Assembly: GCA_963750165.1 (NCBI GenBank)
Contig: CAVVPN010000003.1
Location: 3,232,001 to 3,296,000 of the forward strand
Reading direction: 5' to 3'
Origin: an uncultured Gemmataceae bacterium
GTDB lineage: Bacteria; Planctomycetota; Planctomycetia; Gemmatales; Gemmataceae
Length of the DNA: 64,000 nucleotides
In this document: piece by piece, positions 48,366 through 63,885 of the stretch
Numbering within the stretch: position 1 is the stretch's first letter
How the letters are laid out: every line of letters begins with the position of its first letter
Made by a program: the position numbers and the translations under genes
The notes under the pieces: model-generated
What the model was told of the DNA's origin: nothing
Database searches by the model: none
The model's input: the letters and a program-made list of their open reading frames with translations, nothing else

Positions 48366-48680
48366 GCGACGAGCCGGGACACGTCATGGCGCCGCCCCAT
48401 CGCGGCGGGCTTTCTTGCGGGAGCGCAGGCGGATTGAGCAACTTGTTGCGCAACCCGGAATCTTGCCAATGGGAGTCCCAATCTTTCATTCTTCTGATTG
48501 CTCGCCGCTTCCTCAGGCAGTATACTTCTAACACATCATTAGTCACCCCGGGAGGAAGTTAACACTTCCGCGGAAAGTCTCACCGGTGGCGGGCTCCCAT
48601 GAAGAACCTCCTCGTCTCGACCTCGGAAACGCATGCCCCGCTGCCGATTCGATGAAGGTCGCCCCTGGTCGGAGAAGCAC

Positions 48681-55831
<7,151 letters not shown>

Positions 55832-55835
<4 letters not shown>

Positions 55836-55922
55836 TCATTAGTCATTAGTCATTAGTACGGGGCACCCGCTTCGGACCAATGACCAATGACCAATGACTA
55901 ATGACTGATGACTAATGACTGA
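55832..55922. repeat. Inverted heptamer tandem repeat (TAGTCAT)n/(CTAATGA)n overlapping a stop and a start codon
   Basis: Left arm 55832-55857, right arm 55876-55922. Confidence 0.93.
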
Positions 55923-58058
55923 CAAGATCAACATCCTGGTGGTGGACGACCTGCCGGAAAAGCTGCTGGTGCTACAGTCCGTCCTGGAGGAACTGGGGCA
56001 GAACGTCATCACCGCACGCTCGGGCGAGGAAGCGCTGCGCAAGGTCCTGGAACACAAGTTCGCCGTCATCCTGCTCGACGTGAACATGCCGGGCATGGAC
56101 GGCCTGGAAACCGCCGCCCTCATCCGCGGCCGCAAGAAGTCGGCGCACACGCCCATCATCTTCGTCACCGCCTTCGCCGATGAAATGCACACCGCCCAGG
56201 GCTACGAGTTGGGCGCCGTCGATTACATCCTGTCGCCGATCGTGCCGGAAGTGTTGCGCACCAAGGTCCGCGTCTTCGTCGAGCTGTTCCGCATGACGCA
56301 GCAGGCCCACCGCCAGGCCGACGAGCGCGTCGCCCTGGCGCGGCGCAGGCGGCCCGCGCCGCCGCCGAGGAGGCCACGCGCCGCTCCGCCTTCCTGGCCG
56401 AGGCCAGCACCGTCCTGGCCAACTCGCTCGACTTCGACGCCACCGTGCGCGGCCTGCTCCAACTGGTGGTGCCGTTCCTCGGCGACCTGGCCGCGGTCAC
56501 GCTCGCCAGCGAGGCCGGACTGCCCTGGCGCAGTCAGTTCGCTTACCTGTTGCTGGACGACGGCGGCCTGCACCAGGGCGCACTTACCGCCGCCGAAGGG
56601 CCGCAGGATGAACTGCGGACCGCCGTGGAGCGCGTGCTGACCGGCGGCCGGGCCGAGACGCTGGATCGACCGCGTCGGTTGTCCGTGGTCCGTGGTCCGT
56701 CGCCAGGGGCGGGAGCGACGGACCACGGACCACGGACCAGGGACGAAATCGAATTGCACACAGCCGTCGTCCTGCCGCTGCTGGCCCGCGGCCGCACACT
56801 CGGGGCGCTGACGCTGGCCCACGGCCCTTCCGGGCGCCACTTCACACCGGCCGAGTTGTCCCTGGCCGAAGACCTCGCCGGCCGCGCTGCCATCGCCCTG
56901 GACAACGCCCGGCTGTACCGCGACATCCAGCAGGCCGACCGCCACAAGAACGAATTCCTGTCCATGCTGGCGCACGAGCTGCGCAACCCGCTGGCGCCCA
57001 TCCGCAATGCCGTGCAGATTCTTCGCCTCAAGTGCGCCCACGACCCGGAGTTGACGCAGATCCGCGACCTGATCGACCGCCAGGTGCAGCAGCTCATCCG
57101 GCTGGTGGACGACCTGCTGGACATCTCGCGCATCACCCGCGGCAAAATCCGCCTGCAAACCGAGCCGGTGGATGTGGCCACAGTGGTCACCCGCGCCGTC
57201 GAGACCAACCGGCCGCTGATCGACACCCGCCGCCACGAGTTGACGGTGACGCTGCCGGTCGAGTCGCTGCGCGTCGAGGGCGACCTGGTACGGCTGGCCC
57301 AGGTGCTCGGCAACCTGCTCAACAACGCGGCCAAGTATACCGAGGACGGCGGCCACATCTGGCTGACGGCGGAGCGCGACGGCACCGAGGCAGTGCTGCG
57401 CGTGCGCGATACCGGTGTGGGCATTCCACCGGACATGCTGGCCTCCATCTTCGAGTTGTTCACGCAGGTCGATCGGACGCTGGACCGCAGCCAGGGCGGT
57501 TTGGGCATCGGCCTGACACTGGTGCGGCGGCTGGTGGAGATGCACGGCGGCCGCGTCCAGGTCCACAGCGAGGGCCCCGGCCAGGGCGCCGAGTTCGTCG
57601 TCCGGCTGCCGGCGCTGGTGGGAGAGCGGCGGTCGGTGGCGACGGCCAACGGCATCGTCAGTTCGCTGGCGCGGTGCGGCCCGGTGCGCGTGTTGGTGGT
57701 GGACGACAACCACGATGCGGCCGACAGCCTGGCACTGCTGCTGCGGCTGGGGGGCCACGAGGTGCGCATCTGCCACGACGGCGCCACGGCGGTCGCGGTC
57801 GCGGCGGCGGATCGGCCGCGGCTGGTGCTGCTGGACATCGGCCTGCCCGGCATGGACGGCTACGCGGTGGCGCGCCAGCTGCGCCAGCTGCCCGAGCTGG
57901 CCGGCACGGTGCTGGTGGCGCTGACCGGCTACGGCCAGGCAGAGGACGTGCGCCGCTCGCACGAGGCCGGCTTCGACCACCACCTCGTCAAGCCCGCCGA
58001 CCCGGAGACGCTGGTCAACCTGTTTGCCTCGCTCGAACGCGCCGCGTCGGTTTCGTGA
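55915..58058 (+). CDS. Hybrid kinase REC-GAF-HisKA-HATPase-REC; frameshift near 56343
   Basis: ILVVDD, LLDVNMPG; KNEFLSMLAHELRNPLAPI; NLLNNAAKYT; GGLGIGL; C-terminal REC. Confidence 0.9.
56681..56737. repeat. Inverted heptamer tandem repeat (GTCCGTG)n/(CACGGAC)n, intragenic
   Basis: 23-bp perfect arms, 11-nt loop. Confidence 0.93.
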
Positions 58059-61675: not shown

Positions 61676-63592
61676 ATGGGGATTCAGGAAGCGCATCCCG
61701 CGCCCACCGTTCCGGTCAACCCATACGGCATCCGCGGCGGCGACCCCAACGCCCGGACCATCGCGGGCCTGAAATTGCTGCGGACACGCGGCGTACTCAA
61801 CGAGGCCAGCGAGCAGCTGGCCGTCGAAGGTTCCGTGCCGCCGGAGGTGCTGGCACTCATCCCCGGCTCGGTGGCGCGTGAGAACGTCATCATGCCGCTG
61901 CACTTCGATGGCGAAACCATCACCGTCGCCGCCGTCAACCCCAGCGACATCGCGACGGCGGACAAGTTGCGGTTCATTCTCGCCAAGGATGTCAAGCTGG
62001 TGCCCGCCCGGCGCGAGGTCATCCTGGAGATGATCGACCGCCATTACCCCGCCGCCGAAACGGAATCGGTGGACAGCATGTTGCAGGAGTTCACGGATAC
62101 CGCCATCGATTTCGGGAAGAACGAAACCTCCCTGGACCTGGCCGGCAGCCCCATGCGGGAGATGAGGCAAGTCAGTTTGTACGACCGCTTGAGAAACGCC
62201 CGCCGTTCCCTGGGCAAAGGCGTCGTTGAGTTCAAGAAGGGCGTCAAGGGGCTGAAGGATGAGGACGCGGGATTTGAATGCTCCTTGTTGGAAGACCTTG
62301 CGGATGAAGAACCCCTGCTCCCCGGCCAGGACCCCACGCGGCGAATCGGAGGCACCGGCATGTTTCACTACACCGTCGAGGAAGGGCAGCGCGTGCTGAT
62401 GTGGCGGCGCGACGGCACCATGCACATCATCGTCGGCCCGCGGCGCGTCTGGCGCGGCTGGAGCACGTTCCAACCGATGAAGCACTTCGTCGCGCACCCG
62501 GACAAGTTCCTGATGGTCCGCTTCCGCGACGGCCGTCAGGAGCACCTACCCGGACCCGCCGACATCTGGCTGGACCCGCGTATCCACCAGCAGATCACCG
62601 TCGAGGACGCGCTGCCGCTGGCCGCGAAGGAGGCGGTCGTCGTCTACACCAAGGCCCCGGACAGCGCCGCCGTGTCGCGCCGGTTGGTGTTCGGCCCGGC
62701 GCTGTTCGTGCCGCAGCCCGGCGAATGGCTGCACACGTTTTCCTGGCACGCCTCGAAGGGCGGATCGAAGGGAGTGCAGAAGGTGCCCAATGGACTGGTC
62801 TTCCAGAAGCTGTGGCTGATGCCGGACCAGATGTACCATGACGTGACGGACGTGCGCACCGCCGACGACGCGCTGCTGACGATCCGGCTGATGATCTTCT
62901 TCGAGCTGATCGACATCGAGCGGATGCTGGACGCGACGCACGACCCGATTGGCGACTTCGTCAACGCCGCCAGCAGCGATGTGGTCGCGTTCACCGGCCG
63001 TCACGATTTCGAGCGCTTCAAGGGCGTGACGCACCAGTTGAACGACCTGGAGAGCTACCCACAGTTGACCGGCCGGGCGGCGCAGTGCGGCTATCGCATC
63101 AACAAGGTGGTGTATCGCGGTTACGGGGCGGCGGCGTCGCTGCAGGCGATGCACGACCAGGCCATCGAGGCGCGGACGCGGCTGCAGCTGGACCGGGCGA
63201 CCGAGCAGCAGGCGCAGGAGCTGGAGAATTACAAGCTGGACTGTCAGCTGGCCCGCGCCGGCAAGCGGCGGCTGGAGCAGGTGGGCGAGGTGGAGCACGA
63301 CCTGGAGCTGGCCCGCCGGCGCCAGGAGGCGGAACTGCGGCAGCGCGAGGCGCAGATGGCGTTCGTGCGTGAGAAGGCGCGTCAGGACGCGGAGTTGCGG
63401 TTGACGATCCGCCGCGGCCAGGACGCCCAGCAGCGCGAGCACCTGGCGGCGCTGCGCGAGATGAGCGTGGACCTGACCGCGTATCTGACGCAGCATCGCG
63501 CCGACCGCGTGATCGAGCTGCGCGGCACGGCGGCGCCGCACGTCCACCTGGACCAGCTGACGGTCAACGGCAAGGAAGCGGGGAAGGACTGA
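61676..63592 (+). CDS. GspE/PilB N-terminal (MshEN/T2SSE_N-like) domain fused to a major-vault-protein-like/SPFH region with coiled-coil tail
   Basis: LIPGSVARENVIMPL...ITVAAVNPSD..D.LRFIL; repeated xxGP beta-repeats; VRTADDALL...DPIGDF..A..S; long Q/E/R/A helix. Confidence 0.75.
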   Translation: MGIQEAHPAPTVPVNPYGIRGGDPNARTIAGLKLLRTRGVLNEASEQLAVEGSVPPEVLALIPGSVARENVIMPLHFDGETITVAAVNPSDIATADKLRFILAKDVKLVPARREVILEMIDRHYPAAETESVDSMLQEFTDTAIDFGKNETSLDLAGSPMREMRQVSLYDRLRNARRSLGKGVVEFKKGVKGLKDEDAGFECSLLEDLADEEPLLPGQDPTRRIGGTGMFHYTVEEGQRVLMWRRDGTMHIIVGPRRVWRGWSTFQPMKHFVAHPDKFLMVRFRDGRQEHLPGPADIWLDPRIHQQITVEDALPLAAKEAVVVYTKAPDSAAVSRRLVFGPALFVPQPGEWLHTFSWHASKGGSKGVQKVPNGLVFQKLWLMPDQMYHDVTDVRTADDALLTIRLMIFFELIDIERMLDATHDPIGDFVNAASSDVVAFTGRHDFERFKGVTHQLNDLESYPQLTGRAAQCGYRINKVVYRGYGAAASLQAMHDQAIEARTRLQLDRATEQQAQELENYKLDCQLARAGKRRLEQVGEVEHDLELARRRQEAELRQREAQMAFVREKARQDAELRLTIRRGQDAQQREHLAALREMSVDLTAYLTQHRADRVIELRGTAAPHVHLDQLTVNGKEAGKD

Positions 63593-63597
63593 CGACC

Positions 63598-63885
63598 ATG
63601 CCCATCGAAATCAAGTGGACCGACACCGACCCGGACAGCGGCCAGCGCCGCTTCCTGTGCGCCGACAAGTTCGCGGGCGCGTGGCGCTTCAAGTGGAAGT
63701 TGCAGCGCCGCGGCGAATGGACGCGCGGCCTGGAGCCGACGCTGGAAATGTGGGAGCACGTCCTGGACAGCCTGCAGCGCCGCTACCGCCGCCGCGAGGG
63801 CGTCAGCGACGAAGATCTCGCGCAGGTCGAAAAAATCCTCAAAGAGCTGCGCCAGCGCCTCGCCAAGCTGGAAGAGGAAGACTGA
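63598..63885 (+). CDS. Small hypothetical protein, probably co-transcribed with the vault-like gene
   Basis: Starts 5 nt after the upstream stop; typical codon usage. Confidence 0.75.
   Translation: MPIEIKWTDTDPDSGQRRFLCADKFAGAWRFKWKLQRRGEWTRGLEPTLEMWEHVLDSLQRRYRRREGVSDEDLAQVEKILKELRQRLAKLEEED

Follow-up and report, generated by a model that had tools for sequence, protein, structure and literature searches.

A major vault protein homologue with three repeats in Planctomycetota carries copies of host PilB and TatA segments at its N-terminus

The window analysed here, 64,000 nucleotides of a contig from an uncultured Gemmataceae bacterium, contains a gene for a 638-residue protein whose C-terminal core is a truncated major vault protein (MVP) homologue and not a canonical MVP, because it has three vault repeats instead of nine and no Pfam match. 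We refer to it as mini-MVP. In front of the core lie an N1 domain of the PilB type and a helix resembling that of TatA, both close to the corresponding proteins of the same genome. Mini-MVP may form a cage of the vault type for which these copies of host surfaces serve as address or as bait, with the TatA copy kept in step with its host by selection, a reading that we hold with more doubt than confidence.

Results

Gene and domain architecture

As judged from its sequence, the open reading frame (Table 1) is real far beyond chance, because it has 1552 relatives at E ≤ 0.001 (7998 candidates scored) and a core dN/dS of about 0.09. Pooled over 19 close pairs, one of them a duplicate and three sharing genomes, dN/dS is 0.09 for the core, 0.30 for the N1 domain and 0.58 for the linker, which aligns unreliably, is very variable and contains many indels. 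Every motif quoted in the original prediction lies in this frame. Pfam recognises MshEN (E 1.5e-17) and, weakly, TatA at residues 171–198 (E 0.008), and the rest is without a match; the absence of an ATPase domain after the MshEN-type domain, already proposed, is borne out by Pfam. The TatA-like helix is an element that the prediction did not include. Relatives have their start codons near residues 28–30 of the frame, and translation may therefore truly begin downstream of position 61676. The motif pattern at residues 32–44 occurs in 93 of 167 fused proteins and in 12 of the 15 unfused loci of a Myxococcota-rich group. The gene is single-copy in its genome, and a promoter scan gave nothing above chance. 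An assembly chimera was rejected, since the fusion is present in many independent genomes.

Table 1 Features of the mini-MVP gene and its downstream neighbour (positions in the window)
Feature	Position	Strand	Remarks
Whole gene, 638 residues	61676..63592	+	N-terminal motif, then PilB N1 domain, a variable linker with the TatA-like helix, and the mini-MVP core
Short N-terminal motif, residues 32–44	61769..61807	+	From column conservation; common to the fused clade and Myxococcota relatives without N1
PilB/GspE N1 alpha-beta domain (Pfam MshEN, residues 53–129) and acidic PilB linker to residue 152	61832..62131	+
Putative TatA amphipathic helix mimic, residues 171–196	62186..62263	+	FK motif; without TatA membrane anchor
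Three predicted vault repeats, about residues 228–267, 268–312 and 313–379	62357..62812	+
Shoulder (SPFH) domain, residues 380–485	62813..63130	+	Invariant D384
Cap helix, residues 487–595	63134..63460	+	From the AlphaFold model
Conserved C-terminal tail	63461..63589	+	Low model confidence
95-residue conserved protein, no known family	63598..63885	+	Chance neighbour, outside the system

Upstream of the gene lies an RluA-family pseudouridine synthase gene, and the 95-residue frame starts 5 bases downstream. This frame, once suggested as a partner, is a real gene, but we reject it in that role because it occurs in 122 of 151 genomes of the family (against 21 of 151 for mini-MVP, some as fragments only) and in none of the 80 loci related to mini-MVP, so that the conservation of neighbourhood proposed as a check is not found. 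Where the two genes share a contig they are 1.6 Mb (G371) and 3.8 Mb (G377) apart. In the Atlas, the 95-residue protein falls only in unnamed clusters rich in Verrucomicrobiota. Elsewhere in the window, positions 48633–55835 encode a 2400-residue hybrid histidine kinase whose HAMP-like repeats form a long array. After it, at 55915–58058, come frames of response-regulator and kinase type, which overlap one another in different reading frames and may represent a single frameshifted gene.

The core is a truncated MVP homologue

In profile searches with residues 228–638, the top-ranking PDB sequence is MVP (E 0.003 and 0.007). Identity to MVP is 16–19%, and the alignment is collinear from the last repeat through the shoulder to the cap helix. 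The AlphaFold model of the core (87 sequences, mean pLDDT 83.9) has MVP as its top 12 Foldseek matches (E 3e-14 to 3e-10), followed by flotillin (4e-7). VIA-align also places rat MVP first (Z 13.9, rmsd 15.0, 360 residues aligned), with a stomatin domain as the runner-up at Z 13.2 over 106 residues, less than one Z unit below. The matched stretch of the rat chain, residues 318–769, presumably comprises repeats 7–9, the shoulder and the cap helix. The MVP-like order of repeats, shoulder and cap helix, as originally predicted, is thus backed by sequence profiles and by predicted structure, and the coiled coil of about 110 residues appears in the model as one helix of 109 residues.

We folded the repeats separately from the core in order to see whether the GP repeats adopt the vault repeat fold. 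The 13 best Foldseek rows for this model are MVP, with TM-scores up to 0.62 and none at E ≤ 0.001, and in VIA the repeats align to MVP over 137 of 154 residues (Z 7.4, rmsd 4.7) while SPFH chains match about 43. The core is therefore modelled as containing three vault repeats. The original prediction would have yielded to best hits among ordinary band-7 or flotillin proteins and to GP repeats of another fold; we find that MVP ranks above these proteins and that the GP repeats match vault repeats. Three GP-bearing units are indeed present (residues 250–255, 289–294 and 335–341), but the GP lies inside each repeat and not at its end. The third repeat has an extended keyhole-like loop with invariant W357, H358 and K369.

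No match to Pfam Vault or MVP_shoulder above the curated cut-offs was obtained for the 638-residue protein; weak matches to these families occur in 5 and 2 of 13 relatives, respectively, and two longer relatives pass Vault_3. Mini-MVP has an SPFH domain with a helical region after it, as canonical SPFH/band-7 proteins do. No membrane anchor was found upstream of this domain, the highest 19-residue hydropathy being 1.38, inside a strand of the shoulder. The best matches in a viral fold library, giant-virus band-7 proteins, were not informative.

The N1 domain resembles that of the host PilB

Residues 53–152 are identical to the genome's own PilB (G000:C11:531685-533514) at 52 of 100 positions, acidic linker included, and sequence comparison indicates that the domain derives from the host pilus PilB. 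Across 50 sequences, its residues D96 and F100 do not vary. The PilB/GspE-type ATPase domain is absent from the 638-residue protein, and an RLG-type c-di-GMP-binding motif, in the form that we assume for it, was matched in only 3 of 167 fused N-terminal parts. In three genome pairs, dN/dS of N1 is 0.306 in the fusion compared to 0.016 in PilB, about 20 times faster. The substitution pattern indicates that purifying selection acts on the fused domain, and its fast evolution fits relaxed function or a decoy. Across 11 genomes the fused N1 is somewhat closer to its own PilB than to others (permutation p 0.005, median rank 3 of 12).

By analogy with GspE–GspL, N1 is thought to contact PilM (PMC11656802, PMC6145873). 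The predicted complex with the genome's PilM scores 0.36, compared to 0.00 for the best of 3 controls; the runs agree in at least 81% of contacts and the partner pLDDT is at least 70. Of 157 solved pairs, 116 attain the mark used for this score, as do 2 of 215 mismatched pairs; among those that attain it at ≤0.60 are only 18 solved pairs and both mismatches. PilM binding by N1 thus has weak predicted support, and the pass may stem from likeness to the solved GspE–GspL complexes. PilM is present in 38 of 41 genomes, in contrast to the patchy mini-MVP. The proposed tie to pilus machinery is carried by the fused N1, its closeness to the host PilB and the weak PilM prediction; no pilus genes lie nearby.

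The PilM domain itself (G000:C3:1035256-1036434) starts an 825-residue protein, seemingly fused to downstream PilN-like sequence (L127:124-2601; G000:C3:1033957-1036434). N1-like domains also occur in other frames of about 340–390 residues and in a 968-residue frame with the whole PilB N-terminus (G422:C8:304443, G377:C1:2995929, G447:C150:67519, G371:C6:495033, G441:C12:1968968 and G371:C9:9479), and the domain may be a mobile module in the family of these genomes. In the linker after N1, one subclade has, as a further borrowed module, a zinc ribbon of planctomycete type (6 of 119 relatives: P0005, P0012, P0013, P0022, P0026 and P0037), and a candidate third borrowed motif, for which no source gene was identified, is found in 7 of 167 linkers.

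The TatA-like helix tracks the host TatA

Over residues 171–196, 19 of 26 positions are identical to those in the amphipathic helix of TatA from the same genome (G000:C3:533689-533766, Pfam TatA). As in TatA, the helix is amphipathic and carries the FK motif, and its hydrophobic moment of 0.60 is tied for the highest in the protein. The TatA transmembrane helix is absent: the match spans only profile positions 21–48 and there is no hydrophobic segment. A TatA-like segment scoring at least 30 occurs in 41 of 105 fused proteins, compared to a maximum of 23 in 215 shuffles.

In a first set, 7 of 8 genera have their closest match in the host's own TatA, and so do 7 of 9 further genomes. Overall it is the best of 23 TatA variants in 13 of 17 genomes, which are kin and not fully independent, and the observed sum was reached in 0 of 20000 permutations. 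The comparison leaves aside genomes whose fused protein lacks a recognisable segment (in the first set 5 of 16, in the second 6 of 15), as well as two repeats of a genus and one genome without TatA. In eight disjoint pairs, sites that differ in both the TatA and the fused copies give 35 own matches and 2 cross matches; two of these pairs repeat one lineage contrast, and dropping one leaves 30 and 1 by hand count. Thirteen of the 35 are K/R sites, and in one genome (G447) the conserved F is replaced by V in both TatA and the fused helix.

Synonymous sites in the helix show no tracking (8 own versus 9 other), and the share of identical codons is 59% for own and 53% for other TatA. Recent gene conversion from tatA was therefore rejected. 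Because amino acids track the host TatA and synonymous sites do not, selection on the protein, or an old capture kept by selection, appears more likely, and the tracking suggests selected mimicry. Since the FK motif has been proposed to order contacts between TatA helices (PMC13186574), the partner of the helix is, by analogy, likely to be TatA, TatC or something that recognises TatA. Host-specific tracking predicts a species-specific interaction.

Distribution and gene neighbourhood

Searched with a profile, 1.84 billion representatives yielded 1468 matches, 373 of them at E ≤ 1e-30; the wider family has variable repeat numbers and includes some eukaryotic members. N1 shares an ORF with the core in 105 of 119 listed relatives and at 58 of 81 loci. 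Fifteen loci, mostly from Myxococcota, are without N1, and most of those remaining look frameshifted or cut by contig ends. Myxococcota relatives are without both N1 and the TatA-like helix, and N1 has been lost in L047. The fused forms make up one side of a branch with support 97 (FastTree, 251 rows), with Myxococcota outside; a quick IQ-TREE run on 49 chosen rows gives the same split a support of 90, which neither shows nor rejects it. The fusion thus recurs across Planctomycetota, probably from a single origin as far as the sequences indicate, and spans Pirellulaceae, Planctomycetaceae, Isosphaeraceae and Gemmataceae. Among named sequences, the nearest relatives come from Gemmataceae and other Planctomycetota, and the named loci include those of Limnoglobus roseus, Zavarzinella formosa, Gemmata algarum and Singulisphaera sp. 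In the phylum as a whole presence is patchy as well (6 of 301 genomes, 2 of the 6 fused).

The flanks of 80 related loci, 59 of them with at least 9 kb of sequence, contain no pilus, Tat or NAD genes, and an operon with any of these was rejected. The flanking scan covered the 108 ORFs that remained once 11 near-duplicate loci and 6 repeated trpB genes had been set aside; among the 108 are three DUF1559 prepilin-like genes, one TIR-domain gene and one integrase gene. Conserved neighbours occur in one Gemmata-like group only, where trpB and a carbon-nitrogen hydrolase gene are in local synteny with the gene.

C-terminal gene fragments occur near an intact copy or alone (L030:8340-8678, L061:12275-12607, L106, L112, L113 and L114), which suggests decay or local duplication. 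A search for longer fused forms returned a single match that looks frameshifted and was rejected. Relatives of 600–810 residues with more repeats (P0131, P0135, P0136, P0137, P0198 and P0205), two of which pass Pfam Vault_3, form a length series from mini-MVP to full MVP. Short MVP-like relatives also come from eukaryote datasets (P0244, P0233 and P0139; Picozoa, Paulinella), two of them with an N-terminal biotin-lipoyl domain, and the top Atlas cluster (404 residues) is 67% eukaryotic. Four loci labelled Alcaligenaceae (L003, L021, L025 and L030) lie inside the planctomycete clade, and these labels may be wrong.

A possible nucleotide pocket and a sister family

Human MVP is described as binding NAD behind the keyhole loop, with contacts from R504, K506, R507, P508, H509, R511, D521 and others (PMC12280208), and ADP-ribose has been seen at the MVP shoulder (bioRxiv 10.64898/2026.05.01.722283). 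Mapped by hand count through an alignment with rabbit MVP, the counterparts of K506 and D521 are K369 and D384, both of them unchanged in all 87 sequences, and those of R504, R507 and R511 are V367, V370 and L374, so that three basic pocket residues are lost. The keyhole loop is longer in mini-MVP than in MVP. A partly conserved nucleotide pocket may persist behind it, and such a pocket could tie mini-MVP to levels of NAD or ADP-ribose.

A sister family of stand-alone mini-MVPs of about 400 residues (loci L083–L085) is 46% identical to the core. In three of four loci its neighbours are genes for NAD synthase, nicotinate phosphoribosyltransferase, NrtR, Nudix, KptA and ADP-ribosylglycohydrolase. 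None of 11 sister-operon proteins found a match in 81 loci of the fused clade.

Discussion

The reading that we prefer, while placing it at somewhat less than an even chance, is that of a mini-vault dome docked at the cytoplasmic face of the pilus machinery and the Tat machinery, which it would cover or restrain. Subunits would assemble side by side into a small dome, as in the SPFH/MVP family, possibly closed at its top by the C-terminal tail that follows the cap helix. The rim, where the N-terminus would be placed, would display N1 as a docking tag for the pilus platform protein PilM and the TatA-like helix as a tag for the membrane or TatA, and the dome would act on these machines in the way in which SPFH cages treat their clients. 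We favour docking because a TatA mimic and a PilB docking domain stand upstream of the core in place of a transmembrane helix. Against it speak the lack of nearby pilus or Tat genes, the fast evolution of N1, a helix recognisable in only 41 of 105 fused proteins, a highly variable linker and a patchy gene beside a PilM found in 38 of 41 genomes. Further points against it are the Myxococcota relatives that have neither piece, a PilM prediction that may reflect likeness to GspE–GspL and the loss of three basic pocket residues of human MVP.

Several of these observations would be explained as well if mini-MVP were an integrated decoy, a cage that shows PilB N1, the TatA helix and sometimes a zinc ribbon and that traps or senses phage or predator proteins targeting pili and Tat. 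Amino-acid-level tracking of the host TatA, the weaker tracking of the own PilB, the fast N1, exchangeable linker modules such as the zinc ribbon and patchy presence all agree with this, and phage proteins are known to target PilB (PMC11656802). A decoy accounts for tracking, fast N1 and patchiness as well as the docking dome does, but it comes without a defence context: there is no PADLOC match, the 638-residue protein has no effector domain and, with one TIR-domain and one integrase gene among 108 ORFs, the flanks are not defence islands. In addition, the mapped site of Tip in PilB is N2 and not N1 (PMC11656802). We consider a decoy unlikely, although it is the strongest competitor of the docking dome.

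Improbable, in our judgement, is a mini-MVP that is closed and soluble and, like its sister family, would hold NAD or ADP-ribose in store, with its N-terminal pieces capturing PilM, TatA or other cargo off the membrane in the lumen. The setting of the sister family among NAD salvage and ADP-ribose genes and the invariant K369 and D384, aligned to NAD-contacting residues of MVP, would suit such a particle, but the sister-operon proteins have no counterparts in the fused clade. Moreover, MVP halves are reported to join via N-terminal residues (PMC12280208), where mini-MVP has three repeats and 227 extra residues.

The N-terminal pieces could also be passengers, acquired by recombination with host genes and slowly decaying on a functional core. 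The high dN/dS and many indels of the linker, the loss of N1 in L047 and the degenerate helices of most members point in this direction. Such passengers would not, however, be expected to keep an N1 domain at a dN/dS of 0.30 across four families from a likely single gain, nor to track the host in residues and not in synonymous codons, and we give this explanation little credence. That mini-MVP is an ordinary band-7/SPFH protein with incidental likeness to MVP is very improbable and, on the models, largely refuted by the repeat-only Foldseek and VIA comparisons: about a third of 104 distant relatives match Pfam Band_7 weakly, the top Atlas cluster is named Band 7 and the whole-core Z of MVP and stomatin are close, but the repeats align to MVP over nearly their full length, sequence profiles rank MVP first and no transmembrane segment lies upstream.

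If mini-MVP is indeed a cage addressed or baited by host-surface copies, capping the pilus and Tat machines or trapping their attackers, it would be an example of a vault with defined clients and would connect the open SPFH domes with the closed vault. To our knowledge vault function is still open, and eukaryotic knockouts show little. The mini-MVP family provides a three-repeat vault relative in cultured bacteria with two candidate clients within the protein itself, and it could help to test what vaults are for.

Compared to eukaryotic MVP (rat 6BP7/4V60, human 9BW5/9MXJ/9R86), mini-MVP keeps the succession of vault repeats, shoulder and cap helix and has a keyhole loop with the equivalents of K506 and D521. 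It differs in having three repeats instead of nine, in the loss of R504, R507 and R511, in its N-terminal PilB and TatA pieces and in a shorter cap helix, that of rat MVP being, we assume, about 155 residues long. Canonical MVP assembles into a 78-subunit closed barrel. Prokaryotic and phage homologues with the MVP fold are in print (PMC3762200, bioRxiv 10.1101/872010, 10.1101/2023.11.10.566534), with an average length of about 810–820 residues for those of bacteria and phages (bioRxiv 10.1101/2023.11.10.566534), and Asgard MVP, described with five repeats, shares with mini-MVP a number below nine (PMC12962969). The parts of these reports that we saw contain neither a PilB/TatA fusion nor a member from Planctomycetota, although the shoulder-domain tree of PMC12962969 may include members of the mini-MVP family. 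Our literature search, a few queries on prokaryotic MVP and none pairing vault with PilB or TatA, found no description of a three-repeat MVP fused to such pieces. The stand-alone sister proteins have the same three-repeat core without the N-terminal extension and, unlike the fused clade, sit in an NAD operon.

PilB/GspE ATPases share N1 with mini-MVP, which is without their ATPase domain and c-di-GMP motif; TatA shares its amphipathic helix but not its transmembrane helix. The SPFH cages and rings of HflK/C, QmcA, flotillin, stomatin, erlin and prohibitin have the SPFH domain and long helix in common with mini-MVP. Together with the FliL rings at flagellar stators (PMC8794807), they enclose or scaffold membrane machines. 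Those cages have one SPFH1-like unit and a membrane anchor, whereas mini-MVP has three vault repeats and, where the anchor would stand, borrowed host surfaces instead of a transmembrane helix, an architecture that lies between the membrane-anchored SPFH half cages and the closed vault.
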